Source: Planctomycetota bacterium
Lineage (GTDB): Bacteria; Planctomycetota; JAJSAM01; JAJVHW01
Reading direction: 5' to 3'
DNA length: 64,000 nt
Assembly (NCBI GenBank): GCA_024280885.1
Contig: JAJRPF010000070.1
Span: forward strand, 107,861-171,860
Part shown: piece after piece, positions 17,403 to 60,238 of the stretch
How positions within the stretch are numbered: position 1 is the first letter of the stretch
How the letters are laid out: every line of letters begins with the position of its first letter
Made by a program: the position numbers and the translations under genes
Notes under the pieces: model-generated
Database searches by the model: none
Seen by the model: the letters and a program-made list of their open reading frames with translations, nothing else
Told to the model about the DNA's origin: nothing

Positions 17403-17425
17403 GGGCGACACGGAGCCAGCGATAC

Positions 17426-17514: not shown

Positions 17515-17544
17515 GTATCGAGCCGTCCCGGGTAGCTTCGCCCC

Positions 17545-26670: not shown

Positions 26671-26778
26671 CACAGGGTCGGGCGACGGTCGCCGAATGGC
26701 ACTTCGGCGGACCGCGCACCGAAGAAGCGTGCAAAATGACTGTCCCCGGGCGCCGGTCCGCGGCGTTCCGGGGTTGTC

Positions 26779-28341
26779 ATGAGCGATCTTCCACACACAG
26801 CCGACATCTCGATCCACGTACTTCTCGACCATCACAAGTGGGTGTTGCATCTCGCGCGAGCCCTCTCGCGGGACGATGCCTCGGCGGCGGACCTGGCGCA
26901 GGATGCGTGGGTGCGCGCCCTTGAGCGCCCTCCCGCGCACGGTGGGGCGCTGCGCGCCTGGTTCGGGACCGTCGTTCGCAACCTCGCTCGCGATCGCGCG
27001 CGATCCGCCGAGCGACGAGAACGGCGGGAGAGTGCTCCAGGCCGTGGCTCGGACTCGGGCGATGCGGCGGTTCTCGTCGCGCGGGCCGAGGCGCATGCGC
27101 GTGCCGTGGACGCGGTGGTTGCGCTGCAGGAGCCGTATCGCACGACGGTGTTGATCCATTACTTCGAGGGCGCGCCGCTCGGCGAGGTCGCCGAGCGAAT
27201 GGACGTATCCCGGGACGCGGCGAAGAAGCGGCTGCAGCGTGCGCACGTGATGTTGCGCAGAGCGCTCGACGACGCGCACGACGGCGACCGGAGAGCGTGG
27301 CTCGTACCGCTGCTTGCGGTGGGCGATTGGGGTGCGCCTCCCGTGGCGCGTACGCGACTCCGCACGGCGGCGACCGGGGTCTCGGTCGCTGTGGGCCTTG
27401 CGGTCGTCGCGACTCTCTCCTGGCGCGCTCTCGACGGACGGGAGTTCGGAGTCGATGACGGCGTTGCGTCGCCGGCGAGCGTGGCGACAGCGACCGACGC
27501 CACGATGCCCGTACCGCATGGCTCGGGTGGTCTGCAACCGGATGCGACGGCCCGGAGTGACGACGCGCGATCGGCTTCGAGGGGGCCGGGTGAAGCGGTC
27601 GGCCCGGCCGAGGTCGGCCGCGCAGAAATCTCGTACGGGTTCCGAATCGAGGACGAAGCCGGATCGCCGCTCTCAGGCGTGTCGCTCTCTGCATTCGTCG
27701 AACCCGAGAGGACCGCGTTCGACGACATCGAGGCCGTGCTCTGGGCGTCCCGGGTGATCCCCGCTCCCGACGTGACCGCGTCCACGGATGCGGGCGGGTT
27801 CGCCCGGATCGCGTGGCCCTCGAGTCCGCAGATGAGCGCGCTCGTTGTCGTGCGCCGAACCGGATTCGCGGAAGCGAGAACTCGCGTCGGGCGCAGCGAT
27901 GCGGGGCGCGGTGCTCCAGTCCGTGTTCTCACACTCGGTCGCGCTCACGTCCTGCGCGGTCGCATCGTGGGGGCCGAGGGCGTTGGTCGTTCCGACCTGG
28001 TGGTCCATGCCTCGCCGGTGCTGGGCGTCGGTGGCCTGGAGGAGTACGTTGCACGCCGGGTCGTCGAGACCTCCAGCGGCGGGTGGTTCGAGATCGAGGA
28101 CGTCGCGGCTGGCGATTGGGCAGTCTTCGTGCGCGGTCGCGACATGGTGCGGTCGCGCGTGGCGACGGTCCGTGTGCCGGACTCCGAGGCCGTGGTGATC
28201 CGGTTGTCGCGCGGAACGACCATCTCCGGCTCTCTCACCGATGCCGAGACGGGCGCTCCGCTCGCTGGCGTTAGGGTGGCGATCTTGGCGCAGACGGACG
28301 AAGCCTGGCCCATGCGAGTGCAGGGTGACCACTGCGGTTGA
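26779..28341 (+). CDS. ECF (sigma-70 family) sigma factor fused to transmembrane segment and extracytoplasmic carboxypeptidase-regulatory-like repeats, part 1
   Basis: Region 2 (DLAQDAWVRALE) and region 4 (PYRTTVLIHYFEGAPLGEVAERMDVSRDAAKKRLQRAH), then TM helix VSVAVGLAVVATLSW, then beta-repeat domains. Frame ends in the middle of a repeat. Confidence 0.6.
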   Translation: MSDLPHTADISIHVLLDHHKWVLHLARALSRDDASAADLAQDAWVRALERPPAHGGALRAWFGTVVRNLARDRARSAERRERRESAPGRGSDSGDAAVLVARAEAHARAVDAVVALQEPYRTTVLIHYFEGAPLGEVAERMDVSRDAAKKRLQRAHVMLRRALDDAHDGDRRAWLVPLLAVGDWGAPPVARTRLRTAATGVSVAVGLAVVATLSWRALDGREFGVDDGVASPASVATATDATMPVPHGSGGLQPDATARSDDARSASRGPGEAVGPAEVGRAEISYGFRIEDEAGSPLSGVSLSAFVEPERTAFDDIEAVLWASRVIPAPDVTASTDAGGFARIAWPSSPQMSALVVVRRTGFAEARTRVGRSDAGRGAPVRVLTLGRAHVLRGRIVGAEGVGRSDLVVHASPVLGVGGLEEYVARRVVETSSGGWFEIEDVAAGDWAVFVRGRDMVRSRVATVRVPDSEAVVIRLSRGTTISGSLTDAETGAPLAGVRVAILAQTDEAWPMRVQGDHCG

Positions 28342-29896
28342 CGGGAGCTATCGACATGTCACCATGGCTCCGGGACGCCTCGATGGACTGATCGCAACTC
28401 GCGATGGCTACTTCCGCGCCGAGATCGTCGGACCCCGCAGCGGCGGCCTCAGACTCCCGCCCGGAGGGTCGCGGATCCTGGACGCCGCGCTGCGTCGCGG
28501 CGGGTCGGCACGAGGGCGCGTGACCGTGGATGGTCTGCCCGCGAGCGGGGTGCGTGTGACGGCAATGCGCCCCACCCTGCCGTGGCCGCCGGTGGCCAGC
28601 GCGACGACCGGCACCGACGGCCGGTTCGAAATGCGGTCGCTTCTGGACGAAGCGCTGCATTTCTCGGCTCGTGTTCCGATGCCCGGAGGTCCCGCTCTCG
28701 TGCTGGCCCCCACAACGGGGGTGGACGCTGTTCAGATGGCGGCGGGCGCGGCGCCGCTCGAGGTCAACTTTGTCGGGACCTCCGTACCGGTGACGACGGT
28801 TGCAATCAGCGGGCGCGTCGTCGATCCGGAGGGGGCACCGATCGCCGACGCTGCGATCGGCCGGTACGGGGCGTCGTCTGCTGCCGATGGATCGTTCATG
28901 CTCATGCTCTCGCTTGCACTCCCGATCTCGAACGAGCCGCGTCAGGTCGTGATCTCCCACAGGGACTTCGCATACGCGCTTCTCGCGGTACCCGACGGGG
29001 CAAGGGATCGCGAAGACGTCGGAGAGATCGTCCTCCGGCGTCCGGCTCTGGTGCGTGGTCGCATCCTGGACTCTCGTGAGGTGCCGATCGTAGGCGCCGA
29101 TGTCTGGTTCGGTGAAGACCGCGGCGCGTCTGGCGGACCGGCGTGGACTTCGCCCGCGAGCCGCGCACCGGGACCGACGAGGACTGACGCGCGAGGCGAC
29201 TTCGAGCTCCGGCTCCCTTGGGCGTCCGGGCGCTATCGACTGCGCGCGCGCGCCGCCGGCCATGCGACCGCCGAGTCCGCGACGATCGACCATCCGGGCG
29301 CACCCACGATCCCCGTCGTCGATCTCGTCCTGCAGCCCGCCGAGGTCTTGCGCGGGAGGGTTGTGAACGCGCGGACCGGGACGCCCGTTCCGGGTGCGCG
29401 CTTGGGTCTGGTCTCACTCACGCGGTTCTCCGGCGCCAACAGCGCGGCGGCGTGGGTCCGGCAGGGCTCTCACCCGGTCGTCGCACGCACGGATGCCGGT
29501 GGAGCGTTCACGATCGGGGACCTCGATCCGGGTGGCTACGTCGTGGGGGCCCTGGCGGACGGCTACGCCTCGGCAGACGTGGCTGTGTCTGCGCCGGTCG
29601 AAGCCCCGCTCGTGTTGCGCCTTGAGCCTCTCTTCGAGATCAGTGGCACGGTGATCGCCGCCGACGGAACGTCCGCCGTAGGGGTCCGCATCCGCGCCGG
29701 CAACGGCGGCGGCCGCGAGGGAGACCGCTCTCGGGGGATCACCGACGCGAACGGCGAATTCCGCCTTCGTGGGCTGCTCTCCGGCGCGTACTCGGTCGTC
29801 GCCGTCGGTACCGGCGGCCACCTCCTCCGCGTCCCAGCGGGCACACATGACGTTCGTGTCGTCATCCCGGCGCCGGCAAACCGTGAGCACGAGTGA
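28310..29896 (+). CDS. Carboxypeptidase-regulatory-like repeat protein; probable continuation of the ECF-sigma fusion after a frameshift
   Basis: Domain pattern continues into the second frame (...RVTTAVDGSYRHVTMAPGRLDGLIATRDGYF...) with no credible independent start. Multiple repeats of the form GxVxDxxGxPxxGAxVxL...TDxxGxFxL. Confidence 0.5.
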   Translation, partial: PCECRVTTAVDGSYRHVTMAPGRLDGLIATRDGYFRAEIVGPRSGGLRLPPGGSRILDAALRRGGSARGRVTVDGLPASGVRVTAMRPTLPWPPVASATTGTDGRFEMRSLLDEALHFSARVPMPGGPALVLAPTTGVDAVQMAAGAAPLEVNFVGTSVPVTTVAISGRVVDPEGAPIADAAIGRYGASSAADGSFMLMLSLALPISNEPRQVVISHRDFAYALLAVPDGARDREDVGEIVLRRPALVRGRILDSREVPIVGADVWFGEDRGASGGPAWTSPASRAPGPTRTDARGDFELRLPWASGRYRLRARAAGHATAESATIDHPGAPTIPVVDLVLQPAEVLRGRVVNARTGTPVPGARLGLVSLTRFSGANSAAAWVRQGSHPVVARTDAGGAFTIGDLDPGGYVVGALADGYASADVAVSAPVEAPLVLRLEPLFEISGTVIAADGTSAVGVRIRAGNGGGREGDRSRGITDANGEFRLRGLLSGAYSVVAVGTGGHLLRVPAGTHDVRVVIPAPANREHE

Positions 29897-29946
29897 CGCA
29901 GCGCGTCCCGTGGCGACTTGCCCTCGCACGGGCATGCGTATAGACT

Positions 29947-30294
29947 ATGCGCATGCTGTCATCTCGTGTGCATCTTCTCCTGGAGCCGAGTGAGCGTGAG
30001 CGTTTCGTGCGTGCCGCCGATCGTTGTGGCGAGTCACTGAGTACGTGGCTGCGGCGAGCCGGTCGCGAGCGATTGGAGCGCGAGGACCGCAGCGGCGTCA
30101 TGTCGGTGTCCGAACTGCGCGCATTCTTCGCGGACTGCAATGCGCGTGACGACGGCGTGCCGGAGCCGGATTGGGACGAGCAGAAGCGCGTGATCGAGTG
30201 CTCGGTCCGCTCTGGCGCGGGCGACGCCGGAACGACTGACTCGGAGACGCCTGATGTCGCCAGCTGCGAGACGCGAGAGCGTGGCGAGTCGTGA
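29947..30294 (+). CDS. vapB: Ribbon-helix-helix antitoxin (VapB-like)
   Basis: RVHLLLEPSERERFVRAADRCGESLSTWLRRAGRERLE is RHH-like. Stop overlaps the GTG start of a PIN gene. Confidence 0.6.
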   Translation: MRMLSSRVHLLLEPSERERFVRAADRCGESLSTWLRRAGRERLEREDRSGVMSVSELRAFFADCNARDDGVPEPDWDEQKRVIECSVRSGAGDAGTTDSETPDVASCETRERGES

Positions 30295-30674
30295 TCTTCG
30301 TCGATACCAACGTGTTCATGTATGCGGTCGGCGGGAGGCACCCGTTGCGCGCGCAGGCGCAGGCGTTCTTCACCGCGAGTCAAGGACCGGGCGGCGAGCC
30401 GCTGTGTACGTCTGCCGAGGTGCTCCAGGAACTGCTGCACGCGTATCTGGCGGTCGGGCGGACAAGCACTCTCGACGACGCGCTGCGTCTCGCGCGCAGC
30501 ACGATGGGCGAGGTCTTCGCGATCGAGGCCGACGACGTGCTCTTCGCTCGTGATCTGAACACATCTCTCCCGGGCCTGAGCGCGCGCGATCTCCTGCACG
30601 TCGCGACTTGCCGTCGCCGTGGGATCGACTCCGTCAAGACCTACGATCGCGCGCTGGCCGCCATTTTCGCGTAG
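30291..30674 (+). CDS. vapC: PIN-domain toxin VapC
   Basis: MIFVDTNVFMYA start with downstream acidic residues. Confidence 0.85.
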   Translation: MIFVDTNVFMYAVGGRHPLRAQAQAFFTASQGPGGEPLCTSAEVLQELLHAYLAVGRTSTLDDALRLARSTMGEVFAIEADDVLFARDLNTSLPGLSARDLLHVATCRRRGIDSVKTYDRALAAIFA

Positions 30675-42844: not shown

Positions 42845-43549
42845 TCAGTTGACCTGCTTCCACCTGTTGGAGTCTCGTCCCGGCGTGCCGACGGCCACTT
42901 GGCCCGTGATCGCGCCTGCATCGCCCGAGCCGGAGAACGCCGAGCCGCTCGTGGCCTCGTCGATTGCGCTCGATCCCGAGTACGCGCTCGAGTCGGTGGA
43001 GACGATGTCGCCACCCTGGTTGACGAAGAACGTGCGGTTCCCCGACGTCGCGTAGTTCGCCGGCCAGGCGTAGGCGCACCAGGTGGTCTCGGCGAGATCG
43101 TTGTCGACCGTGCCGTCCACGCTGTCGCCGGACTGCGTCTCTTCCTGTCCGAAGCCGTTGTTCCCCGGAAGGAACATCTTGTAGAGGTAACCGGAGCGGC
43201 TGACCTGCGCCGAGGGATTCAGTGTCCGGAACGCGCCCGAGAGTACGGGCGGGTTGAGTGTCGATCCACCGGTTGCGGAACCGTCCGCGGACGTGCGGAC
43301 AGCGACGCCGCCGGACAGCTCGCGGAACATGCCGAATTCACCTGCGCCGTCGAGGTCGGCATCCGCCTTGGCACCCGCCTGGAACTGCGCTTGCGACGAA
43401 CTGATGTTACGGAGCGTCGAGATGGCCGCCGTCTCGTTGGCGTTGAGACGGGCACTCAGCAGGTTCGGGATCGCGATCGCGGCAATGATGGCGATGATCG
43501 CGACAACGATCATCAGCTCGATCAGAGTGAAGCCGGTGTGCTTCTTCAT
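42845..43549 (-). CDS. Type IV pilin-like / prepilin-type N-terminal cleavage-methylation domain protein
   Basis: MKKHTGFTLIELMIVVAIIAIIAAIAIPNL. Confidence 0.75.
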   Translation of the reverse strand: MKKHTGFTLIELMIVVAIIAIIAAIAIPNLLSARLNANETAAISTLRNISSSQAQFQAGAKADADLDGAGEFGMFRELSGGVAVRTSADGSATGGSTLNPPVLSGAFRTLNPSAQVSRSGYLYKMFLPGNNGFGQEETQSGDSVDGTVDNDLAETTWCAYAWPANYATSGNRTFFVNQGGDIVSTDSSAYSGSSAIDEATSGSAFSGSGDAGAITGQVAVGTPGRDSNRWKQVN

Positions 43550-43759
43550 CGTGGAGTCTCCTCGTCAGTTCCGTAGTCGGAGGACGAACGCCTGCGTTGG
43601 TCGCGTTGCCTCACTCAGCAGGAGGATCGGGACCGACGTGCCGATGACTTGAGACGTCGTTCAGAATAATCAACACGCGTGTCATTCGAATGCAACGTGC
43701 GCGGGGCGCTGCGAGCGTGGTTCTCGACGGCGTCAGGCAGACGCCGCCGGATTTGCGAC

Positions 43760-48945: not shown

Positions 48946-50055
48946 ATGATCGTGGGCGTGCCGCGCGAGATCAAGGACAACGAAAACCGCATTGCCATCG
49001 TGCCTGCCGGTGTGGACGCACTGCGCCGTGACGGCCACATGGTGCTGGTGGAGCAGGGGGGCGGTGTCGGCTCCGGGATCTCCGACGACGAGTTCGTCGA
49101 GGCCGGTGCCGAGATCGTCGAGGGCCACGCCGAGGTCTTCGCCAAGGCTGACATGATCATGAAGGTCAAGGAGCCGCTCCCCGAAGAGTACGGTCTCATT
49201 CGCCCCGGCCAGATCGTGTTCACGTACTTTCACTTCGCCGCGAGCCGTGAGTTGACCGACGGCATGCTGGCATCGGGTGGGGTCTGCATCGCCTACGAGA
49301 CGGTCGAACATGGCGCCACGTTGCCGCTGCTGACTCCGATGAGCGAAGTCGCGGGCCGGATGTCGATCCAGCAGGGCGCGAAGTACCTCGAGAAGCCGCA
49401 GATGGGGCGCGGCATTCTGCTCGGTGGCATCCCCGGCGTGGAGCCGGCGACGGTGATGATCATCGGCGGCGGCGTCGTGGGGACCAACGCGGCGAAGATG
49501 GCCGCGGGGATGGGCGCGAACGTCATCATCTTGGATCTTGATGCCGATCGGATGCGCTACCTCGACGACGTCATGCCAGCCAACTGCACGACGCTCTTCA
49601 GCAACGCGTACAACATCCGCAAGGTGCTGCGCTACGCCGATCTCGTGGTCGGCGCCGTTCTCATTCCAGGCGCCAAGGCGCCGTCGCTCGTCACGCGCGA
49701 TGACCTGAAGATGATGAACGAGGGCGCAGTGATCGTTGACGTGGCCGTCGACCAGGGTGGTTGTGTCGAGACCACGAAACCGACCACGCACAGCAACCCG
49801 ACGTATATCGTCGACGGCGTCGTGCACTACTCTGTGGCCAACATGCCGGGCGCTGTCGGCCGCACATCGACGTACGGTCTGACCAACGTCACGCTCCCGT
49901 ACGCGCGCATACTCGCACGCGACGGATGGTCGAAGGCCGTGCGGGAGAACCACGGTATTCGGACCGGCGCGAACATCGTCGAGGGCAAGGTCACGTACGA
50001 AGCTGTGGCGCGCGCATTCCAACTGGAGTACGTCGACATCGATCAACTCGTCTGA
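48946..50055 (+). CDS. ald: Alanine dehydrogenase
   Basis: MIVGVPREIKDNENRIAIVP... and IIGGGVVGTNAAKMAAGMGANV (Rossmann). Confidence 0.9.
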   Translation: MIVGVPREIKDNENRIAIVPAGVDALRRDGHMVLVEQGGGVGSGISDDEFVEAGAEIVEGHAEVFAKADMIMKVKEPLPEEYGLIRPGQIVFTYFHFAASRELTDGMLASGGVCIAYETVEHGATLPLLTPMSEVAGRMSIQQGAKYLEKPQMGRGILLGGIPGVEPATVMIIGGGVVGTNAAKMAAGMGANVIILDLDADRMRYLDDVMPANCTTLFSNAYNIRKVLRYADLVVGAVLIPGAKAPSLVTRDDLKMMNEGAVIVDVAVDQGGCVETTKPTTHSNPTYIVDGVVHYSVANMPGAVGRTSTYGLTNVTLPYARILARDGWSKAVRENHGIRTGANIVEGKVTYEAVARAFQLEYVDIDQLV

Positions 50056-50114
50056 GTAGGCGATGGATGAGTCGGTGACGGGCCCGCGACGGCGCGAGAC
50101 CATCGTCCCAGATC

Positions 50115-50143
50115 GGCCCCGCAGCCACTCAGGCTGCGGGGCC
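50115..50143 (+). terminator. Perfect 11-bp-stem hairpin (GGCCCCGCAGC-cactcag-GCTGCGGGGCC) 60 bp after ald; candidate intrinsic terminator without U-tract
   Basis: Read directly. Confidence 0.4.
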
Positions 50144-50252
50144 AGCTCGATTCCGGTCACGAAGTGCGTGTCCGGGCTCAAGTTGAACACGTCGAATTGT
50201 AGATAGGTATGCGCGGGCGCCTCCCCTGATGGGAGCGGCTCGCGGAGGCACC

Positions 50253-50627
50253 ATGCAACTCGATGTCACTCGCAATGGCGACCGGATGGTCGTCAGATTC
50301 TCGGAGCGCGTGGATCTCGAAGGCGAGAGCTCCGATCGGTTCAAGAACCAGCTCAAGGACATCGTCTCGCAGGGCGGGAAGTACCTTGTCGTTGACCTTG
50401 GTCACGTCGGTTTCATCGATAGCTGTGGACTCGGAGCGCTGATCTCCGCGCTGAAGGTGCTGCGCAGATCGGGTGGGTCGCTCGTGCTGGCGAACATCTC
50501 GGAGCCGGTCGAGGCGGTTCTGCGCATCACGCGTCTGTCGCGCGTCTTCGATATCTGCCCCGACGTGCAGGACGCCCTTGTTCTCTCGTCCACGCATGCG
50601 AACTCGTCGGGTGAGTCGACTCGATGA
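50253..50627 (+). CDS. STAS-domain anti-sigma-factor antagonist (RsbV/SpoIIAA-like)
   Basis: ...LVVDLGHVGFIDSCGLGALISA... Confidence 0.75.
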   Translation: MQLDVTRNGDRMVVRFSERVDLEGESSDRFKNQLKDIVSQGGKYLVVDLGHVGFIDSCGLGALISALKVLRRSGGSLVLANISEPVEAVLRITRLSRVFDICPDVQDALVLSSTHANSSGESTR

Positions 50628-52039
50628 ACGAGCTGCGGCTTCAGTTGGTCGGGAGCGATCCGGAGACGGAGGCTCGACTGCGTCGACGCTTCGAGCGCTC
50701 CGGCGTGCGCATCGCGGAATCCGTTCCGCTGCACGACGCACCGTCACGGCTGGCCAACTCGGATCCTGACGTCGTCCTTCTCGACGCGGGCGAGGGCGGA
50801 GCCGCTGCCGCCGACGGATTGGTGGCCTTGAAGGAGGCGTTCCCGGAGTTGCCGGTGATCTTGCTCGCGGCGGCCGAGGATGTGGCGTCGCTCGCGGGGG
50901 CCGTGCGCGGCGGAGTGTTCGACGTCGTCCCGAAACCGCTGGATCTCACGCGCCTCGACCTCGCGATCAAGAACGCCTCGCAAATGCACCGGCTTCTGCG
51001 ACGTGTGCAGCAGTTGCAAGAACGCGGCGCGGCGCCGAGTGGGTTCCGTGGGATCGTCGGAGAGTCGAGCGCGGTGCGGGATGTCATCGCGTCCATCGAG
51101 CAGGTCGCCCGAACCGACGTGGGCGTGATCCTCGCGGGGGAGAGTGGCACGGGGAAGGGACTCGTCGCGCGCACCATCCACGACTCGGGCGAGCGCAAGG
51201 CGCGCTCGTTCGAGGCGTTCCATGCAGCTGCGATCCCCGCGTCTCTGCTCGAGAGCGAGCTCTTCGGCCACGAACCTGACGCCCTTGAGGGCGCGACCGC
51301 GCCGTACCCTGGCTGCTGTGAGCGCGCTGATGGGGGCTCGCTCTTCATCGGTGAACTCTGCGATCTCTCGCTGGACGTCCAGGCCGTCCTGCTGCAATTC
51401 CTGCGCGAGGGGAGTTTCCGCAGGTTGGGTGGCACGTCGCCGATGACCGCAGACGTCCGCGTCATTGCCGCCACGAGCCACGATCCGGCGGAGGCGATCT
51501 CCAGTGGCCGATTGCGCGAAGACCTCTACTACCAGTTGAACGTCGTCACGATTGCCACGCCGCCGTTGCGACGCCGCACCGGCGACGTCCCGCTCCTCGC
51601 ACAGCACTTCCTGGCGCGCTTCTCGGGCAAGTACGGACGCTTCTTCCAGGGCTTCGACGCGGAGGCCCTCGAGTCCCTGTCTCGACACGCGTGGCCTGGC
51701 AACATCCGCGAACTCGAGAACGTGATCGAGCGGATTGTCGTGCTCTACGACGGGCCGACCGTGACGGCGCGCATGCTGCCGCCCGAAGTCCTCGATGCCG
51801 CGCCTCATGTGGATCTCGATCGCCACGATCGCGGTCTCGACGAGATCCTGCCATTCGTCGAGATCGAGCGCCGCGAGATCGTGCGCGCGCTGCGCATCTG
51901 CGAAGGCAACGTGTCGCATGCCGCGGAGCGGTTGGGGATCGGGCAAGCGACGCTCTACCGCAAGATCAAGAAGTTCGGTCTCCGCTCTCGACGCGGCTTT
52001 CGCGAGCCGGCAGCAGACCCCCTGGGACAATCTGGGTGA
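50624..52039 (+). CDS. Sigma-54-dependent transcriptional activator (REC-like N-domain + AAA+ + HTH)
   Basis: GESGTGKG, GAFTGA-like (GHEPDALEGA), ESFRRLGG. ATGA overlap with the STAS gene stop. Confidence 0.85.
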   Translation: MNELRLQLVGSDPETEARLRRRFERSGVRIAESVPLHDAPSRLANSDPDVVLLDAGEGGAAAADGLVALKEAFPELPVILLAAAEDVASLAGAVRGGVFDVVPKPLDLTRLDLAIKNASQMHRLLRRVQQLQERGAAPSGFRGIVGESSAVRDVIASIEQVARTDVGVILAGESGTGKGLVARTIHDSGERKARSFEAFHAAAIPASLLESELFGHEPDALEGATAPYPGCCERADGGSLFIGELCDLSLDVQAVLLQFLREGSFRRLGGTSPMTADVRVIAATSHDPAEAISSGRLREDLYYQLNVVTIATPPLRRRTGDVPLLAQHFLARFSGKYGRFFQGFDAEALESLSRHAWPGNIRELENVIERIVVLYDGPTVTARMLPPEVLDAAPHVDLDRHDRGLDEILPFVEIERREIVRALRICEGNVSHAAERLGIGQATLYRKIKKFGLRSRRGFREPAADPLGQSG

Positions 52040-52154
52040 ACTCGTTCGGCCGCAACCTGGCGCGGGCGATCGGCGCGCTGCTGCGGCAGGTGATGCGCGA
52101 CAGATGTCTGGTTCCGCTTCCCGCGCGGGTTCGCCCGCGTCGCGGTGACCCGCG

Positions 52155-52598
52155 GTGAGCGCGTCCATGCCGGTCGTCAGTCTGGATCTCCCGGCAGAGC
52201 GTTCGTCACCGGCCGCCGCGCGAGCGCTGCTCTCCGAGGTCGCGCGCGAGTGTCGGTCGGTGCGACTCTCGGAAGCGGAGATCGCGGAACTGAGTGTCGT
52301 CCTTCACGAGGCGTGCACGAATGTGATCGAGCACGCGCTGGGTGGGGATCGAGAGCGCCGGTTCCGCGTGGAATTCCATCGGCTCGCCACGGGTCTAGCG
52401 ATTGTCATCGAGGACGATGGAGCTGCCTACTCTCTCCCGGAGCGAGCGCCGCCCACGCCGGAGGATCTTCACGAACGCGGTTACGGCTTGCACATCATGC
52501 GCTCGTGGTCGGATCGCGTCCGCCTGGAACGACGTGGAGGCGTCAACCGCTTGCACCTGTTCCGTGCGTACGAAATCCGCGCGGGAGACCGGGCATGA
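52155..52598 (+). CDS. Anti-sigma regulatory factor / Ser-protein kinase (RsbW/SpoIIAB-like GHKL ATPase)
   Basis: ...LHEACTNVIEHA... (N-box) and ...DDGAAY...GYGLHIM... (G-boxes). Confidence 0.7.
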   Translation: MSASMPVVSLDLPAERSSPAAARALLSEVARECRSVRLSEAEIAELSVVLHEACTNVIEHALGGDRERRFRVEFHRLATGLAIVIEDDGAAYSLPERAPPTPEDLHERGYGLHIMRSWSDRVRLERRGGVNRLHLFRAYEIRAGDRA

Positions 52599-54199
52599 CC
52601 GCCGTCCGGAACGTCGCGCGTGAGGCCGGTCGATCGGGCGCATTGCGCGCGCTGATCGACATGGCAGCGGACACCGGTTGGGATGTCGGGCTCTACGACC
52701 TCGAAGGTAATCCGCTCGCTCCCGCAGGCGGGTTGCGCGGCCTGCCGCAACTTGAAGTGCAGATGCCGCTCGCCTGGACGCTCGCGCATCGCGCCGCAGT
52801 GACGTCGCTCGGCGACGTGACAGGTCACGTGGTGGTGCAGCCCCGGATCGACGGCGCCATGGGCGGGTGGTCGCTCGCGGCGCGCGTCGCGGAGGTCATC
52901 GGAGATCTCTGTCGCCTGGAGGTCGAGTTGGAGGACCTGGCGCGCGAGATCGCCGGAGCGTATGAAGAACTCAACCTCTTCTACGATCTGTCCGCGTCGT
53001 TGGCGGGCGCGCGGGAAGCGTCGGTTGTTTGCAGCGCGGTCCTCGAGCGCGCGTTGCGTGTGGTGCCTGCTCGGGCTGCACGCATTCTGCTGCGCGAGCC
53101 CGAGGGCGGATTGCGTGCTGTCGCCCAGTGGGGCGGGGCCGGCGACGAGACCGGCGTGGGCGTGCTCTCGGCAGCTCGCGTCTGTGTTGACAGCCGTCAG
53201 CACGTTCTGCTGGGGTTGGACGCGGCGCTCGGCAATTCGACCCTCGACGAATGGGAGGAAGCGGCGCATCGCTCGCTGGTCGCGGTGCCGGTGCGCGTCT
53301 TTTCGATGGAACGTGTGACGGTTGTCGGTGTACTCGAATTGCGCGATCGCGTGGATGGCGTGGCCGGGCGCCCACAAGCGTTCTCGGCCGGCGATGTCAA
53401 GCTCGTGCAGGCCCTTGCCGATCAGGCCGCGCTCTTGCTTGAGAATACGCGCTTGGCCTCGTACGAACGCGAGGTCCAACTCGCCAGCAATATTCAACAG
53501 GGCTTGCTGCCCGCCGAGCCGCCGCGGATCAGCGGGCTGGAGATCGCCGCCCGCTGCGTGGCCGCGCGGGATGTGGGCGGGGATTACTACGACTTCTTGG
53601 AGTGCTCGGGCGACTCGCTGGGTGTCGTTGTCGCTGACGTCTCCGGACACAACCTGGCGGCAGCGCTCTTGCAGACAGCCACGCGCGCCACGTTTCGTGC
53701 GGCAGCATTGCGCGGCGCGGATCCGGCCCAGATGCTCGCGACGAGCAACGACGCGCTCATGCAAGATCTCGAGCGCGCCGGTCACTTCCTGACGGCGTGG
53801 GTGGCGCGTCTGGATACACGTACAGGCGAGCTGGAGTTCGAAGGAGCCGGACACCCACCGGCGCTTCTGCTTCGCGCGGACTCGGGAGTCGTCGAGCGGC
53901 ACGCGGGAGGAGGCCTCCCGGTCGGGGTCGATCCCGACGCGAAGTACGCGACGCATCGTGCCGTCCTGCGTCCTGGAGACGTGCTGCTGCTCTACACGGA
54001 CGGTCTGCTCGAAGCGCGCGATGACAGTGACGAACCGTTCGGAGAAGAGCGCCTGATTGACGTGTTGCGCACGGCGCATTCCGGCGGCGCAGAGCAGGTG
54101 GTGGAAGAGATCCTCGCGGCGATCCGCGCCCACACCGCTGTGCAATCCGACGACCGGACGCTCGTCGCGCTCAAGCGCAGCAGCCCCGATATTCGATGA
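52596..54199 (+). CDS. GAF-domain PP2C-type Ser/Thr phosphatase (RsbU/SpoIIE family)
   Basis: ATGA overlap with the preceding gene. PP2C motifs DVGGDYYDF, VADVSGHN, YTDGLLEA. Confidence 0.8.
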
Positions 54200-54233
54200 A
54201 GAGTCGGGTGGGAGTCCACCCCTGGAGGTCAAA

Positions 54234-54644
54234 ATGTCGCAACGTGTCCTCGTCGTGGACGACGAACCGTTCATCCTGCGGTCGCTGAGTTTTGTACTCG
54301 AGCGTGCAGGGTACGAGGTGCTGCAGGCCCGAGATGGCGATGAGGCGCTCGAAGCCTTGCGCGATCATCGTCCACAGGTCTGCCTGCTCGACGTGATGAT
54401 GCCGCGCCGTAGCGGATTCGAGGTCTGCGAGATCGTGAAGGGTGATCCCGACCTGCGCGATACGTACGTCGTCATGCTCACGGCCAAGGGCCAGGACGCG
54501 GCGCGCGAGCGCGGTGTGCAAGCGGGCTGTGACGAGTACCTCACGAAGCCGTTCAGTCCCAGCCTGATTGTCGAAAAGGTGCGTGCCGCGTTCGGCGCCG
54601 CCGAGAGGCTGGCCGCTTCGGCGACGACTGCCGAGGAAAGCTAA
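54234..54644 (+). CDS. Single-domain response regulator (CheY-like receiver)
   Basis: GGAGG 7 nt upstream. VLVVDDE ... LLDVMMP ... KP. Confidence 0.8.
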   Translation: MSQRVLVVDDEPFILRSLSFVLERAGYEVLQARDGDEALEALRDHRPQVCLLDVMMPRRSGFEVCEIVKGDPDLRDTYVVMLTAKGQDAARERGVQAGCDEYLTKPFSPSLIVEKVRAAFGAAERLAASATTAEES

Positions 54645-54646
54645 CG

Positions 54647-56452
54647 GTGCCGTCGGTCCCACTGACCGGCATCCCCGCGCTGATTGCGGCCGTTCTGGGT
54701 CTGGGCTGCGTCTTCGTCGTCCTTTCGCAGGCGTCTCGGTCGCGCGTCGTGCGGACGATCGTGCTGGCGTTGGCCCTCGGCGCCGTCGCCGCGGGTGGCG
54801 CGCTCGGCATGCGCGAGGAGCACACCGCATCCGTTCTCGGCGGACGGCTCTTCCTCGTCGGGGTGTCTTCCGCGGTTCTCGCAGTGGGATACTTGCTGCA
54901 CCAGTTGACGGCGGCCGAACGAGCGCTGATCGGCGCGTTCTCGGACAGCGGTCGCTTCGAGCGGGAGAGCGAGTTGTTGGCCGCGCGAAACGCCGTGCTG
55001 CAAACGCAACTCGAACAGTCGCAGGCGCAACTCGCGCAGACCGCCATCAGCGGCTCTGCCGCCATCCTGGACCCGTCCGATGATGGCACGGACGTGCGTG
55101 TGCTTGAGGACCGTGCCGAAGACGCCGAGCAGGCTGCCCGGCGGTCGAGTGCAATCGGCGACGAGATCGTCGATGCCGTGGTCACGCTTGAGCGCAAGTC
55201 CATGCGAGTGGTTCGTCATAACGCGGCGCTCTGCCGCCTGCTCGGCCGCTCAAGGGGCGAGCTTCAAGGAGCGCGACTGGTCGATGTTCTCGGCACGAAC
55301 GAGTCCGTTGTTCGTGCGTTCGACATCGATCAGATGGCACACGCCGGTAGCTCGGTGGTTGTGGCGATCACGCGCCCAGACGGTGCCCAGATCGAGGCCG
55401 AATTGCGCATCGGTACGGCCGGTGACGGGCAGGACCGGCAACTGATCGCCGTTCTGCGCGACGTGACGGAGAGCAGCGAGCAGGCGCGGAAGCTGTGTGC
55501 GGTCGAGGAGCAGGTCCGGGTACTGGAAGCCGAGGCCGCGGCGCATCAGTGCGCCGCGACGACTCCTGCGGCGGCACCGGCGGATGCGCGCGATGCGGCG
55601 ACATCCGAGTCCGGTCCCACGCAGAGCGATTCTTCCTCTCAGCGTGTGCACGCGTCGATCGATGCTCTGATCGATCGCGAATTCGCGTGGGTCTCTGAGA
55701 CACTGCCTTCGGATGCCGACGTCGCGCACGAGCGATCGGTCGAAGCCATCGCCCACGACTTGCGCGTTCCATTGACCAGCATCCGGAGCTTTGCCGAGAT
55801 CCTGCTCGAGCACGACGATGTCGAGGCCGACGAACGGGTCGAGTTCTTGCAGATCATCCAGAAGGAGAGTCGGCGCCTGACGCGCATGGTCAACGACCTG
55901 CTCGATGTGCGCCGGATCAAGTCCGGAGTTGGTGAGCTCGACCTCGAGGACATGGATCTTCGCGACCTCGTGCGCGACGGCCTCAACTCCCTGAACGGCC
56001 TTGCGCTCTCGCGTGGGGTCTCGTTCGAAGGGACGTGGGATGGCGAGGTGCGGACGGTGCGTGGTGACCGCGATCGGTTGCACCGCGTCGTGGCCAATCT
56101 GCTCTCGAATGCCGTGAAATTCAGCCCCGAGGGCGGCGCGGTCGAGGTCATTCTGCGCGAAGGCGAGGAAGCTGGATCGGTGCGGCTTGGCGTTCGAGAC
56201 CACGGTCCGGGTATCGCGGAAGAGGATCAGGGAGTCGTCTTCGAGCGCTTCAGTCGCGGTGCGGACGGTCCCGAGAACGTCTCCGGTACCGGTCTCGGCC
56301 TCTCGATCTGCCGCGAGATCGTCGAGATCCACGGCGCACGAATCTGGCCAGAGAGCAGGCCGCAGAGTGGCGCCACGCTCTGGGTCGAATTCCCTCCTCC
56401 CGAGCGGGTCAACGCGACCCCGGCTCACGCGGTCACCGCCGACTGCGCCTGA
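54647..56452 (+). CDS. Sensor histidine kinase (TM + PAS-like + HisKA + HATPase_c)
   Basis: H-box AHDLRVPLTSIRSFAEIL, N/G boxes NLLSNAVKFS ... GTGLGLSI. Confidence 0.8.
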   Translation: MPSVPLTGIPALIAAVLGLGCVFVVLSQASRSRVVRTIVLALALGAVAAGGALGMREEHTASVLGGRLFLVGVSSAVLAVGYLLHQLTAAERALIGAFSDSGRFERESELLAARNAVLQTQLEQSQAQLAQTAISGSAAILDPSDDGTDVRVLEDRAEDAEQAARRSSAIGDEIVDAVVTLERKSMRVVRHNAALCRLLGRSRGELQGARLVDVLGTNESVVRAFDIDQMAHAGSSVVVAITRPDGAQIEAELRIGTAGDGQDRQLIAVLRDVTESSEQARKLCAVEEQVRVLEAEAAAHQCAATTPAAAPADARDAATSESGPTQSDSSSQRVHASIDALIDREFAWVSETLPSDADVAHERSVEAIAHDLRVPLTSIRSFAEILLEHDDVEADERVEFLQIIQKESRRLTRMVNDLLDVRRIKSGVGELDLEDMDLRDLVRDGLNSLNGLALSRGVSFEGTWDGEVRTVRGDRDRLHRVVANLLSNAVKFSPEGGAVEVILREGEEAGSVRLGVRDHGPGIAEEDQGVVFERFSRGADGPENVSGTGLGLSICREIVEIHGARIWPESRPQSGATLWVEFPPPERVNATPAHAVTADCA

Positions 56453-56658
56453 GCGGCGGTCCGTTGTCCGGCCGACCGCCTCTGTCACGAGCGGGCAATC
56501 GTTGACCGCTCCCGCCATGCAGCGTGGAATCGCCGACTGCACGCGAGCCTCCCACGAGAAGTGGACGGACAGCGCGCATCGCGCCGCGCCGCCGCGGCGA
56601 TCGGTCGGGGTCGTGTGACCTCGGCGTCCATCGTCGTCCCCGAGATCTGTCGAGGCCC

Positions 56659-58101
56659 ATGTCCGAGTCCGCTTCGACCGAAAAGACGGGTTCGACTGAG
56701 AATGCGGATTCGACCACCCCGACGGGCTCGCGAAGCCTGACCCGCGGCCTGCCGGCACTGCTCAAGCTGGGTCTGCCGCTGGTCGCTGGCATGGGCGGGC
56801 ATGCGTTCTTCAACCTGATCGATCTCGCGATGGTCGGGGCCTACGAGAGCGACCCACATCGAGCGGAGTTGACGATCTCGGGCGTCACGATCGCATCGCT
56901 CCTCATCACGGTGCCGCTCGTCTTCGTGAACGGCATCTCGAATGGCTCCGTGGCTGTGATCGCGCAGCAATTCGGTGCCGGCAAGATGAAACGCGCCAAT
57001 CGCTCGGCGCGCCAGGCACTGCTTCTAGCGCTCGTGCTCTCCATCGTGCTCGGAGTGCTTCCGGGGCTCTTCTCCGGTCCGATCGTCTCGATGTTCGACG
57101 TCACGTCGTCGTTGGAACGCAGTGTCGCCGAGCAATATTTTGCGATCATGAGCCATGGGGCCATCACCGGTTTTCTGCTGGTGCAGATCACCGCCAATAT
57201 GCGCGCGATCGGCATGGGAATGTGGCCCATGATCCTGTTGCTGACGTCGAACGCCGGCAACATCATCGGCAACTATGTGCTCATTTTCGGGAAATGGGGC
57301 TTCCCCGAATTGGGCGCGACAGGGGCGGCGTGGTCCACGACGATTGCGCGCGGCGTGGCGATCCTCATTGGCGCAGCCGTGCTCTTCCGAGCGCATCCCT
57401 CGATCCGTATCGGCTGGACCGGCTGGCGCATCGACAAGCGCGTCTTGCGGAACGTGGCAGGCGTCGGTCTGCCCGTTGCGCTCCAGTGGACCGTGCGCAT
57501 GGTCGGCATGCTGGCGCTCCTCCTCGTGGTCTCGCCGTTCGGGTCGCCGGTCAAGGCGGCGTTCGGCGTCGGCACGCGATTGGATACGCTCGCGACGTTC
57601 GCGGGCCTCGGCTGGGGTGGAGCTTGCGCCGCCATGCTCGGGCAGCGCCTGGCTCAGGATCGCATTGCGGACGCCCGCCGTGTCGCACTGCAGTCGGCGA
57701 TCCTCAACGTCGCGACGATGTCTCTGTTGGCGGCCGTATTCTACATCTGGGCGGCACCGCTGATCAGGCTGTTCAGCCTTTCAGTCGATGGGCCGGTCGA
57801 TCCCGATTCGGTCGCCCACGGTGTCACGTATCTGCGGATCGTGGTCCTCTCCTATCCTTTCTACGCATTGACCATCATCTGGTGCCACGCGCTCAACGGT
57901 GCCGGTAGCATGAAGACCCCGCTCCTGATCGACGCGATCGGCTTGCTCGCCGTCCAAGTCCCGCTCGCCTGGTGGCTCAGCACGACCGATCTGGCGGAGA
58001 CCGGCGCATGGTGGGCGATGGTCGTTTCGCAGATCTTGATGGCGCTGGTCTACTGGCTCGTGTTCCGAGGGGGAGCCTGGGAATCGAAGAGATTGCGCTG
58101 A
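56659..58101 (+). CDS. MATE-family efflux transporter
   Basis: 12 TM helices with MATE-like repeats. Start ATG at 56659 (upstream track extension is shadow). Confidence 0.8.
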   Translation: MSESASTEKTGSTENADSTTPTGSRSLTRGLPALLKLGLPLVAGMGGHAFFNLIDLAMVGAYESDPHRAELTISGVTIASLLITVPLVFVNGISNGSVAVIAQQFGAGKMKRANRSARQALLLALVLSIVLGVLPGLFSGPIVSMFDVTSSLERSVAEQYFAIMSHGAITGFLLVQITANMRAIGMGMWPMILLLTSNAGNIIGNYVLIFGKWGFPELGATGAAWSTTIARGVAILIGAAVLFRAHPSIRIGWTGWRIDKRVLRNVAGVGLPVALQWTVRMVGMLALLLVVSPFGSPVKAAFGVGTRLDTLATFAGLGWGGACAAMLGQRLAQDRIADARRVALQSAILNVATMSLLAAVFYIWAAPLIRLFSLSVDGPVDPDSVAHGVTYLRIVVLSYPFYALTIIWCHALNGAGSMKTPLLIDAIGLLAVQVPLAWWLSTTDLAETGAWWAMVVSQILMALVYWLVFRGGAWESKRLR

Positions 58102-58103
58102 AC

Positions 58104-59252
58104 GTGGCTGCCAACAAACGAACCAAATCATCGAACGGGCCCCGGACTTCGGCGCCTGGTGGAACGGGTGGAGAACCGACACGGATCTCCAAGCCGGAGC
58201 GGCTGCTTAACCTGGTCGCGTTCCTGCTGAGCTCGCGGCGCGCCGTCCCGTTCTCGCAGATCCGCGGGCGGGTTGCCGGTTACGACGATCCCGCGAGCCC
58301 CGAGGCGCTCGAGAAGCGCTTCGATCGTGACAAGGCTGAACTGCGCGCGTTGGGTGTGCCGATCATCTACGACGCGTCCGACGACCAGGGCGAGGATGGC
58401 TACCGCATTCCGCGCGAACAGTACTTCCTGCCCGACATTCGGTTGACGGTCGAGGAGGCCGCCGCGCTCGCCGTCGTGCAGCGCTACGCGTTCTCGGCAT
58501 CGGACGATCCACTGGCCGCTCCGCTGCAGAGTGCGCTGCGCAAGGTGGTGGTCGACAGTCCGCTCACCGGGGCAGCCGCGGCGTCGGTGACAGAGCAGCA
58601 TCGGCTGGGGGTCCGAACCGCCGGGGGCGCGCCGGAATTGGGGCCTAATCTCGAGGCGCTGACGGATGCCGTCATCCGGCATCTCCCCGCGCGCTTCCGC
58701 TACTACAGTATCGAGCGCGACGAGGTCCTCGATCGGGAGGTCGAGCCCTACGGCCTCGGCTGGCACGGTCGCTGGTGGTACATGGTCGGGTACGACCGCA
58801 CGCGCAAGGCCGTCCGGCAGTTCCGCGTCGACCGTGTACGCGGGCGCGTGAAGGTGCGTGCCGGCCGACCGTTCGAAGTTCCCGAAGGCTTCGAGATCTC
58901 CGAGCATGTGGGCCGCCCGGCGTTCATCTTCGAGGGGGACGAGTCCGACGATCGCGAGACGGTGCGCGTCACGGTGGAGTTGCGTCCGGAGATCGCGTTC
59001 ATGGCTCGCGATGGGCTGCGCCAGGGATGGACGCTCGCGATGCAGGACGACGGGAGTGGGCTGCTGTCATTCCCCGCGCGGCATGCCGCCGCCGTCTTGC
59101 GCTTCGTCGCGTCGCATGCCGAGCGGGCCCGGATCGTTGCCCCCGCCGATTTCCGCGAGAGCGCCCGCACACATTTCCGCGCGATCCTCGACCGCCACGT
59201 GGGCACGCCCACCGCCGTCCCCGGGCAGCGCCCGCGGAAGCGCCGCCGATGA
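58104..59252 (+). CDS. WYL-domain transcriptional regulator, PafB-like
   Basis: N-terminal HTH and WYL motif (WHGRWWYMVGYDRTRKAVRQFRVDRV). Confidence 0.7.
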   Translation: MAANKRTKSSNGPRTSAPGGTGGEPTRISKPERLLNLVAFLLSSRRAVPFSQIRGRVAGYDDPASPEALEKRFDRDKAELRALGVPIIYDASDDQGEDGYRIPREQYFLPDIRLTVEEAAALAVVQRYAFSASDDPLAAPLQSALRKVVVDSPLTGAAAASVTEQHRLGVRTAGGAPELGPNLEALTDAVIRHLPARFRYYSIERDEVLDREVEPYGLGWHGRWWYMVGYDRTRKAVRQFRVDRVRGRVKVRAGRPFEVPEGFEISEHVGRPAFIFEGDESDDRETVRVTVELRPEIAFMARDGLRQGWTLAMQDDGSGLLSFPARHAAAVLRFVASHAERARIVAPADFRESARTHFRAILDRHVGTPTAVPGQRPRKRRR

Positions 59253-60238
59253 GTCGCGATCCGTACCAAGGCGTGCGCCACGCACTGACGATCATCCCCC
59301 TGATTCAGGCCCGTCAGGGGATCACGATCGAGGAGCTGATGGAGGCGACCGGCCTCTCCGAGAGCCAGATCCGGGACGAGCTTCAGAGCCTCGTGATGCT
59401 CTGCGGCGTGCCGCCGTACTCGCCCAATAACTACGTTTCGCTCTGGATCGAAGACCGCCAGGTCTACATCCGTTTCGCCGAGCAATTCGAACGTCCTGTG
59501 AGACTTGTCGTTCCGGAAGCGCTGGCGCTCCTGCTCGCGCTCCAGCGGCTGGATCGGCGCGAGCACCCGTACCGCGACGCCGTGCGCCGGTTGCAGGGCA
59601 AGATCCGTGAGGCGCTCGGGCCGGAGGCAGCGCGCGAACTCGAGAAGGCCGAGAAGGCCATTCGCATGGGGGACCGCGCGGGCGGAGGGCGCGTGCGCCA
59701 GTTGCGCGAGGCGATGGCCCAGTGTCGCGAGCTGCGCATCACATACTGGTCGGCGCATCGCTCGGCACTGTCAGAGCGTGTCATCCAGCCCTACGGAATG
59801 ACCGAGTTCGGGGGCGACTGGTACGTCGTCGCTCACGACTCGGTGCGCGGCAAACCCGTGACGTTCCGGATCGACCGGATCCGCGAGGCGGAACTGCTCG
59901 ACTCCGAGTATGAGATTCCCGACGACTTCGACATCCAGTCCTGGCGCGATGCGTCGCAGTTCACGGCTCCCGCAGGTCGCACGATTGCGCGTGTGATCCT
60001 CCGCGGGATGGGGGCCCGTTTCGCACGCGAGCAACTGCCGCGGCGCGATGTCAAGGACCTGCCCGACGGCTCGCTGCTCGCTCGCGTTACGGTGCGCTCC
60101 GAGGCCTGGTTCTTCTCGTGGCTCTTGCCTTTTGGTCCCGACGCGGAGGTGATCGAACCGCTCGACCTGCGCGAGCGGGTTGCGGAGACCTGTCGCAAGA
60201 TCCTCGATTTCTACGACGAGCGTCCGCCCGCCGCCTGA
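59249..60238 (+). CDS. WYL-domain transcriptional regulator, PafC-like
   Basis: ATGA overlap with the PafB-like gene. WYL motif (GGDWYVVAHDSVRGKPVTFRIDRI). Confidence 0.7.
   Translation: MSRDPYQGVRHALTIIPLIQARQGITIEELMEATGLSESQIRDELQSLVMLCGVPPYSPNNYVSLWIEDRQVYIRFAEQFERPVRLVVPEALALLLALQRLDRREHPYRDAVRRLQGKIREALGPEAARELEKAEKAIRMGDRAGGGRVRQLREAMAQCRELRITYWSAHRSALSERVIQPYGMTEFGGDWYVVAHDSVRGKPVTFRIDRIREAELLDSEYEIPDDFDIQSWRDASQFTAPAGRTIARVILRGMGARFAREQLPRRDVKDLPDGSLLARVTVRSEAWFFSWLLPFGPDAEVIEPLDLRERVAETCRKILDFYDERPPAA

Follow-up and report, generated by a model that had tools for sequence, protein, structure and literature searches.

A six-gene run on a contig of a Planctomycetota bacterium brings together the three proteins of a partner switch, a regulator of the NtrC family and a two-component pair, and the association of switch and regulator recurs, in a second gene order, in other phyla. 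The run lies in a 64-kb stretch (roughly 63-70% G+C) of contig JAJRPF010000070.1, assembly GCA_024280885.1, to which we refer as the window. Between 50253 and 56452, on the plus strand, it encodes a STAS protein, an NtrC-family regulator of the enhancer-binding protein (EBP) type, an RsbW-like kinase, a GAF-PP2C phosphatase, a CheY-like receiver and a PAS histidine kinase (Pfam assignments), all of them where an earlier note on this DNA had placed them. We tentatively favor a model in which the switch gates the EBP-like regulator by contact and in which, in this lineage, the regulator acts independently of sigma-54. The adjacency of STAS and EBP genes in two orders, the missing receiver input of the regulator, the fusion of kinase and phosphatase in related loci and the lack of a linked sigma gene all speak for this model. 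Linkage of this kind argues for functional coupling between switch and regulator; as to who binds whom, in which direction control runs and how the regulator would act without sigma-54, we infer the answers given below.

Components of the run

Judged by their sequences, the STAS protein, the kinase and the phosphatase constitute a partner-switching system of the RsbV/RsbW/RsbU type. The phosphorylatable residue of the STAS protein is Ser57, in FIDSCGLG, whose DS motif is kept in nearly all of the aligned cassette orthologs; its matches in the PDB are TM1442, SpoIIAA and RsbV. The kinase has RsbW (6m36) as its sole PDB match (E = 2.8e-10) and carries the N-box EACTNVIEH together with DDGAAY and GYGLHIM, the E..N..H of the N-box being conserved in all orthologs. 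In the phosphatase, the match to the SpoIIE profile covers 190 of 192 positions, and the metal-binding (PPM) motifs GDYYD, DVSGH, YTDGL and DDRT can be read in the translation; its N-terminal ~140 amino acids (aa) were assigned to no domain. On the same grounds, the histidine kinase, with its H-box (AHDLRVPL) and catalytic domain, and the stand-alone receiver, a canonical one with the full phospho-acceptor set (DD pocket, Asp, Thr and Lys), are a two-component pair. The receiver is the most conserved of the cassette proteins, with 59-83% identity across loci.

Two of the junctions are ATGA overlaps, as had been pointed out before: the STAS and EBP genes share 50624-50627 and the kinase and PP2C genes 52595-52598, both read in the sequence. 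The other genes are separated by 115 nucleotides (nt; EBP-kinase), by 34 nt that include a GGAGG (PP2C-receiver) and by 2 nt (receiver-histidine kinase). Both a GGAGG located 8 nt before it and the alignment of orthologs support 50253 as the STAS start. Upstream, the cassette is bordered by an alanine dehydrogenase gene and then by a GC-rich hairpin at 50115-50143, downstream by genes for a MatE protein and two WYL proteins (Pfam). Across 49900-56700 no sigma-70 consensus promoter was found, and the search for intrinsic terminators returned terminator-like sites at chance level. We infer that the six genes form one signaling operon, read as a single transcript.

In its core the run is akin to the RsbV-RsbW-RsbU/P and SpoIIAA-SpoIIAB-SpoIIE switches of Bacillus, with which it shares a STAS protein with a phospho-Ser, a GHKL kinase and a SpoIIE-family PP2C with an N-terminal sensor. 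Unlike the Bacillus switches, the cassette has no sigma gene within the operon or near it in any relative; an NtrC-family regulator is lodged between STAS and kinase, a two-component pair is appended, and some related loci encode kinase and phosphatase as one fused protein.

Gene order in Planctomycetota relatives

The closest homologs of the EBP all come from uncultured Planctomycetota, the nearest of them (99% identical) on a contig of 6.6 kb. The order STAS, EBP, kinase, PP2C, receiver, histidine kinase is found in 15 Planctomycetota loci (the window, L001-L006, L008, L011-L016 and L088), across which EBP identity falls from 86% to 45%, and the STAS/EBP junction is everywhere a 4-nt overlap or a 3-nt gap. 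The surroundings vary: in L005 and L006 an aminotransferase gene takes the place of alanine dehydrogenase upstream, and an additional gene follows the histidine kinase. The histidine kinase itself is present in all cassette loci except L001, a 63%-identical relative on a 576-kb contig, where the receiver is followed directly by MatE (L001/L009 13502-14127) and the five other genes are kept. Three further Planctomycetota EBPs, of 41-47% identity (L017, L019 and L085), lie in no cassette. Since the arrangement is conserved across divergent genomes, it is not a chance juxtaposition. The comparison with relatives, which the earlier note had proposed as a check, thus yields a gene order maintained in the face of changing flanks and an EBP gene that is no lineage-specific insertion.

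A second arrangement in other phyla

Hidden Markov models of the six cassette proteins were run over all fetched loci. Thirty loci proved to have the order PAS histidine kinase, EBP, EBP, EBP, STAS, RsbW-like kinase, GAF-PP2C (triple-EBP clusters; Table 1), with the core at ~5.8-13.5 kb of the 21-kb loci. The labels of the metagenome-assembled genomes in question are Deltaproteobacteria, Myxococcales, Bdellovibrio, Nitrospira/Nitrospirales, UBA10199 and "Pseudomonadota". Starting from the window PP2C, an independent search led to one more cluster of this kind, L092, the 31st (homolog P0176, 32% identity); it is the EBP-linked one among three distant PP2C homologs inspected, the other two being L089 and L090. 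We found no published description of an island of this type (three EBPs, STAS, kinase and PP2C).

The clusters are exemplified by L025, which is flanked by housekeeping genes. Its first EBP has a canonical receiver, its second has a receiver and lacks the helix-turn-helix (HTH) domain (Pfam), and its third, ~40% identical to the window EBP, is the homolog of the latter and has a degenerate receiver of the VpsR type. In the triple-EBP clusters it is the STAS-adjacent EBP that is homologous to the window EBP, and these third EBPs keep GA[FY]TGA, the DE Walker B and the Arg finger. EBP and STAS genes are immediate neighbors in both orders; in most loci they overlap by 4 nt or lie 3-20 nt apart. 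In a neighbor-joining tree, unlinked clades (Thermodesulfobacteriota in a MoxR/Bat context, Verrucomicrobiota, and L017/L019) fall between the two clades of switch-linked EBPs. Linkage must then be either old, with subsequent losses, or acquired twice, and in neither case is it an accident of one lineage. Given its recurrence in other phyla, the pairing may mean that the regulator is what the switch really acts on.

Four of the related loci contain kinase and phosphatase as a single HATPase_c_2-GAF-SpoIIE protein (L056 12721-14445, L058 11593-13302, L061 6996-8675 and L065 11627-13294), the domains following one another in the order of the overlapping kinase and PP2C genes of the window. Such a fusion suggests that the pair works as one unit on the STAS protein, which makes the latter a likely carrier of the output.

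The two distant PP2C loci without an EBP have contexts of their own. L089 (5910-14418), whose PP2C is the nearest homolog outside the EBP-linked cassettes, encodes a GAF-HD protein, STAS, an RsbW-like kinase, PP2C, histidine kinases and three glycosyltransferases, a Syp-like set lacking the EBP, and in L090 a PP2C-receiver-histidine kinase group adjoins a gene for a sigma factor of the extracytoplasmic function (ECF) class.

Decay of the regulator under purifying selection

The earlier note had described the regulator as a sigma-54 EBP. Its Sigma54_activat domain (Pfam) bears out the family assignment, but the residues on which sigma-54 activation depends are replaced at three sites. In an alignment with 32 homologs and Aquifex NtrC4, the GAFTGA loop reads D219-A-L-E-G-A224 (DALEGA), the Walker B reads LFIG243E244L against LFLDEI, with G243-E244 in place of D-E, and the Arg finger YYRL reads YYQ304L; the Walker A GESGTGK is intact. 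In the receiver (a Response_reg match of 34 bits against a cutoff of 30.2), G10 and S11 occupy the acidic DD pocket and A82 the position of the Thr, while D54 and K104 are kept; the receivers of its relatives in L006 and in the third EBP of L025 have lost the phospho-Asp and the Lys as well. Because pocket and Thr are gone, and Asp and Lys too in cassette-bearing relatives, phosphotransfer cannot be the conserved input, and a receiver so degenerate calls for some non-phosphoryl input. By domain composition, then, the protein is a bacterial EBP; by motif it is not a competent sigma-54 activator, and its loss of GAFTGA and non-consensus Walker B are those by which atypical EBPs are defined. With its sigma-54 and ATPase motifs lost, the protein is best read as an atypical and probably sigma-54-independent regulator.

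To judge from the aligned sequences, decay is graded within one orthologous clade, GAFTGA going first, then the Walker B, then the Arg finger. The distant cassette orthologs (L003, L005, L006, L012 and L014-L016) have GAFTGA, GSFTGA or GSYTGA, a DE Walker B and the Arg finger; the EBPs of L001, L002 and L008 combine GAFDGA with an E-E Walker B; and in the window EBP and its 86%-identical relatives all three motifs are lost. DGVEGA, DAVEGA, GAFDGA and GAFEGA are the loop variants met among the closest relatives. On a separate branch, L011 (GALGGG) and L013 (GAMPGA) have lost the Thr of GAFTGA independently. The GAFTGA loop has thus decayed at least twice, in the clade of the window, L001, L002 and L008 and in that of L011 and L013, and in both the switch genes are intact.

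The loss of three catalytic or contact motifs might suggest that the EBP-like gene is a functionless, decaying remnant inside a working switch and two-component operon. We regard this as very improbable. The reading frame is intact, and comparison with the 86%-identical L088 ortholog gives a ratio of nonsynonymous to synonymous substitution rates (dN/dS) of 0.10 overall, a value on which we reject a pseudogene, with 0.13 in the AAA+ domain, 0.11 in the HTH and 0.04 in the N-terminal pseudo-receiver, the most constrained part of the protein. HTH and linker are nearly invariant across the clade.

A second NtrC-family EBP is encoded at 17575-18918 (+) in the window. It has a canonical receiver, GAYTGA, the Arg finger and a Walker B that reads LLDDID, which suggests that sigma-54 is still used in this genome and that the loss is specific to the switch-linked gene.

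Sigma factors and promoter motifs

No sigma gene is present in the cluster, as the earlier note had stated, nor within ~22 kb in the annotated part of the window (the parts without annotation are ~41-42.8 kb, 44.7-47.5 kb and 60-64 kb). The nearest, and the only sigma-like open reading frame (ORF) in the annotated part, is of the ECF type and lies at 26740-28341. Within 10 kb on either side, none was called in six related Planctomycetota loci or at the other-phylum cassettes examined. The earlier note had tied its proposal to two points, that no SigB-like gene should accompany the cassette in relatives and that the EBP should not be peculiar to one lineage, and on both the relatives examined side with it.

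The 220 nt upstream of the STAS gene were aligned for 13 Planctomycetota loci. The sole conserved block, set in unconserved sequence, is composed of CT[CA]AAGT[CT], 13 nt, and G[CT][GA]GATA[GA]G. Written as T[CA]AAGT[CT]-N16-[GA]GATA[GA], the motif has one match per aligned locus, at a fixed place (the -10 block of L011 is off by one base), and the 1.5 Mb of fetched sequence contain just one further match; allowing two mismatches adds no second site in the window, and the other-phylum clusters with the same EBP-switch pairing lack the motif. The motif is promoter-like and appears closer to the sigma-28 type than to the sigma-70 or sigma-54 type. Set against the sigma-28 consensus, TAAAGTTT-N11-GCCGATAA, it matches at 6 of 8 positions in each half, with a spacer 2 nt longer. 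A general housekeeping promoter was rejected, the motif being found at a single place in the 64 kb and in each related locus, and a dyad bound by the EBP is unlikely since there is no inverted symmetry.

A motif of this kind raises the question of whether the run is a classical partner switch. In that event the kinase would sequester a group-3 sigma factor (FliA-, SigB- or SigF-like) encoded elsewhere, to be freed by the unphosphorylated STAS protein; the freed sigma factor would read TCAAGTY-N16-RGATAR, making the operon positively autoregulated like the sigB operon, with the EBP and the two-component pair as members of the regulon. The resemblance of the kinase to RsbW and of the STAS protein, phospho-Ser included, to RsbV and SpoIIAA is what such a switch would show, as is a motif that belongs to neither the sigma-70 consensus nor the sigma-54 type and keeps its spacing in 13 of 13 aligned loci. 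We nonetheless find this explanation doubtful, since no cassette examined has a sigma gene in it or within 10 kb, the spacer is longer than in sigma-28 promoters, the motif does not extend to the other-phylum clusters, and fusion of kinase to phosphatase is typical of systems with STAS as the output; the constant adjacency of EBP and STAS in two orders would also go unexplained. Should it be correct, we would be dealing with an anti-sigma operon of the ordinary kind, its sigma factor unlinked, and the interest of the run would be modest.

Sigma-54 promoters, which the earlier note had suggested looking for upstream of a pilin gene at 43549 among other places, did not emerge above chance anywhere in the window. 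The site TGGCAC-N5-TTGCW had no match there at one mismatch or fewer; at two mismatches there were 27 matches, against 18 ± 4.5 expected by chance, and none fell in the intergenic regions of the cassette, though targets may sit elsewhere in the genome. Matches in the Planctomycetota and other-phylum loci were likewise at chance level and at no conserved position. The pilin-like gene, at 42845-43564 (-), specifies a protein of 239 aa whose N terminus bears a prepilin methylation motif and which includes a DUF2950-like region; the best sigma-54-like site in its vicinity, at 43669-43684, has neither the GG nor the GC dinucleotide intact.

Table 1. Genes of the six-gene run, the motif upstream of it, and loci with the same motif or with the triple-EBP arrangement
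Feature	Position or loci	Strand	Remarks
STAS protein, 124 aa, single domain, RsbV/SpoIIAA-like	50253-50627	+	Pfam STAS PF01740, E = 4e-21
NtrC-family EBP-like regulator, 471 aa, with Fis-type HTH	50624-52039	+	Response_reg 34 bits, Sigma54_activat 8e-53, AAA_lid_14 6e-26, HTH_8 9e-13
RsbW/SpoIIAB-like GHKL serine kinase, 147 aa	52155-52598	+	HATPase_c_2 1.5e-22
GAF-PP2C SpoIIE-family serine phosphatase, 534 aa	52595-54199	+	SpoIIE 1e-52, GAF_2 2e-8
CheY-like stand-alone receiver, 136 aa	54234-54644	+	Response_reg 4e-29
Membrane-anchored PAS-HisKA-HATPase_c histidine kinase, 601 aa	54647-56452	+	HATPase_c 4e-30, HisKA 9e-17, PAS_9 4e-7
Promoter-like bipartite motif TCAAGTT-N16-AGATAG	50178-50206	+	~45 nt 5' of the STAS ATG
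Upstream motif in related loci	L001 9547, L002 2458, L003 9551, L004 9554, L005 9550, L006 9556, L008 951, L012 9550, L013 7718, L014 9551, L016 1225		
Triple-EBP clusters	L023, L025, L028, L032, L033, L035-L039, L043, L045-L049, L051, L053-L058, L061, L065-L067, L071, L073, L082, L092		

Discussion

One could envision the following sequence of events for the contact model that we favor. The operon would be transcribed from the conserved promoter, of neither the sigma-70 nor the sigma-54 type. The RsbW-like kinase and the GAF-PP2C phosphatase would act as an opposed pair that sets the phosphorylation of Ser57 in the STAS protein, their balance being biased by the membrane histidine kinase with the CheY-like receiver and by a ligand of the GAF domain. 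The output would be the adjacent NtrC-family regulator, whose own receiver is presumably no longer driven by phosphorylation: either the unphosphorylated STAS protein or the kinase would bind its pseudo-receiver or its AAA+ part and gate it by protein contact, much as anti-activators do (NifL on NifA, FleN on FleQ, PspA on PspF). In the ancestral and sister lineages the regulator would be a normal sigma-54 activator. In the lineage of the window, where sigma-54 contact and ATP hydrolysis appear to have been lost, it would most likely be a DNA-bound repressor or an activator of the sigma-70 type, as are VpsR, NtrX and TyrR. The earlier note had surmised that the module controls the EBP, or is controlled by it, instead of a sigma factor. 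Conserved linkage and the lack of a linked sigma gene support this idea in part, as contact with the EBP could be made by the STAS protein as well as by the kinase; the part of it that does not stand is the competence of the EBP, by motif, as a sigma-54 activator.

The analogy with anti-activators is a mechanistic one. NifL-NifA, FleN-FleQ and PspA-PspF resemble the present case in that an EBP without a phosphorylatable input may be gated by a partner encoded in its neighborhood; by sequence, these partners are unrelated to the STAS/RsbW/PP2C triad. NifL does use a GHKL domain. For FleN and FleQ, anti-activation has been documented (PMC8528422).

Several findings weigh against contact gating. 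The upstream motif looks like a group-3 (sigma-28-type) promoter, such as an autoregulated sigma/anti-sigma operon would have, and the closest solved relative of the kinase, RsbW, is a true anti-sigma factor. Neither target promoters nor binding sites of the EBP were identified in the sigma-54 scans of the window and the related loci. There is a subclade of triple-EBP clusters without the switch, and the nearest PP2C homologs outside cassettes are not all linked to an EBP (L089, L090). Adjacency, moreover, is compatible with mere co-regulation, as is illustrated by the syp locus of Vibrio fischeri, which contains SypA (STAS), SypE (RsbW-like kinase, receiver and PP2C), SypF (histidine kinase) and SypG (sigma-54 regulator) and in which SypA reportedly exerts its effect after transcription rather than on SypG (PMC4517449).

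The syp locus is in fact the closest parallel in composition, in that STAS, an RsbW-like kinase with PP2C, histidine kinase and receiver, and an NtrC-family regulator share one locus, with an output other than a sigma factor in syp (PMC4517449). It differs in that SypE unites in one protein the kinase, receiver and phosphatase that are specified here by three genes, and in that SypG, with its phosphorylatable receiver, works as a sigma-54 activator, whereas the regulator of the cassette has a degenerate receiver and, in the lineage of the window, no longer carries the sigma-54 and ATPase motifs; the two EBPs are compared here by layout. The syp genes are also part of an 18-gene polysaccharide locus. 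None adjoins our cassette, whose neighbors are genes for alanine dehydrogenase, MatE, two WYL proteins and an aminotransferase.

The parallel invites an explanation in two branches. The histidine kinase might feed the EBP, through its residual receiver and D54, and separately, via the CheY-like protein, the STAS switch, with no contact between STAS protein and EBP; the EBP branch would then act on transcription and the STAS branch on a non-transcriptional target. Precedent exists in the single phosphorelay that controls both SypG and SypE (PMC4517449, PMC12826045), and one may add that the window EBP keeps Asp54 and Lys104 and that an EBP-less triad adjoins glycosyltransferase genes in L089. 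We still rate this explanation as unlikely: the acidic pocket and Thr of the receiver are lost, in L006 and in the third EBP of L025 the Asp and Lys have followed, and L001 retains the rest of the cassette without the histidine kinase. Nor is there a set of structural genes comparable to a polysaccharide locus, MatE and the WYL pair being the only conserved neighbors.

Outputs other than a sigma factor have precedents among partner-switch pairs, as the earlier note had maintained in citing HsbA and SypA. In the HptB-HsbR-HsbA system of Pseudomonas, HsbA acts through its phosphorylation state (PMC8256260); the output of SypA is post-transcriptional and independent of a sigma factor (PMC12826045); and to these can be added CapK-CapS, in which CapK phosphorylates a STAS-like repressor, CapS, that binds DNA (PMC13373217). 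The pairs of HsbR and CapK are like the present one in joining an RsbW-like kinase to a STAS partner, and in both the output is something other than direct sequestration of a sigma factor by the kinase. They differ from it in that HsbR fuses the receiver, phosphatase and kinase that are separate genes here, and in that CapS itself binds DNA, whereas in our case a bare STAS domain has an EBP-like DNA-binding neighbor.

That an EBP may function without sigma-54 is likewise well founded. Atypical EBPs that lack GAFTGA and act with sigma-70 have been documented, the class comprising VpsR, NtrX, TyrR, HupR, HsfA, PhhR and the NtrC proteins of Rhodobacter capsulatus and Caulobacter (PMC6158489; 10.1101/2023.06.06.543975). 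Like VpsR (PMC6158489) and Caulobacter NtrC (10.1101/2023.06.06.543975), the window regulator has an NtrC-like layout, a lost GAFTGA and a non-consensus Walker B. It is orthologous to none of them, however; although VpsR (7v2b) and NtrX (5m7n) are among its solved relatives, the nearest chains (NtrC4, ZraR, NtrC1 and LuxO) are ordinary activators. Its decay, moreover, is recent and graded within a clade whose other members keep GAFTGA, and none of the known atypical EBPs has been reported to be linked to a partner switch.

A more specific form of the contact model is possible, though we advance it with rather more hesitation. The switch would directly gate an NtrC-family factor through the pseudo-receiver of the latter, in a pairing both old and widespread, which would amount to an undescribed output of partner switches and an undescribed class of EBP input. 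Under direct gating, the lineage of the window might be thought, with the same hesitation, to have taken the next step, shedding sigma-54 and ATP hydrolysis and keeping the wiring to the switch. Our literature search, of incomplete coverage and thus no proof of novelty, found no paper that links a partner switch with an EBP or sigma-54 or that describes partner switches of Planctomycetes with this pairing.

Partner-switching modules are very common outside the Firmicutes, most of them without a known target, and many EBPs with degenerate receivers lack a known input. If the model that we favor is correct, the conserved pairing would supply the former with a target and the latter with an input. 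It is also worth considering that the graded loss of motifs under purifying selection, with the partner genes intact, offers a natural series for the passage from a sigma-54 activator to a sigma-54-independent regulator.

Other genes in the window

The cassette is followed, at 56524-60238 (+), by genes for MatE, two adjacent WYL/WCX proteins, an aminotransferase and a large TPR/Peptidase_MA_2 protein. All of the Planctomycetota loci examined have the same set downstream, including those with another upstream flank, and one of the two WYL/WCX proteins has a PafC-type HTH in relatives.

The ECF-type ORF mentioned above belongs to a segment (26740-29896, +) of uncertain reading. A Sigma70_r2/r4_2 ECF domain begins this 533-aa ORF, which ends in a CarboxypepD_reg repeat and is followed by the gene for a 565-aa protein with several such repeats; the two may be a sigma/anti-sigma pair with unusual extensions, or an artefact of ORF boundaries.

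Two further ORFs, at 12913-15855 (-; 980 aa) and 15972-17813 (-; 613 aa), are coding-like in the G+C content of third codon positions and matched no Pfam family at E <= 1e-4. The RNA ligase RtcB is encoded at 8994-10256 (-). Expression of rtcBA in enterobacteria depends on sigma-54 and the EBP RtcR; no RtcR-like gene was noticed beside the window gene. A PIN-domain protein is encoded at 30255-30674 (+), and the small upstream ORF that overlaps it (29944-30294) may specify an antitoxin, in what is probably a pair of the VapBC type.

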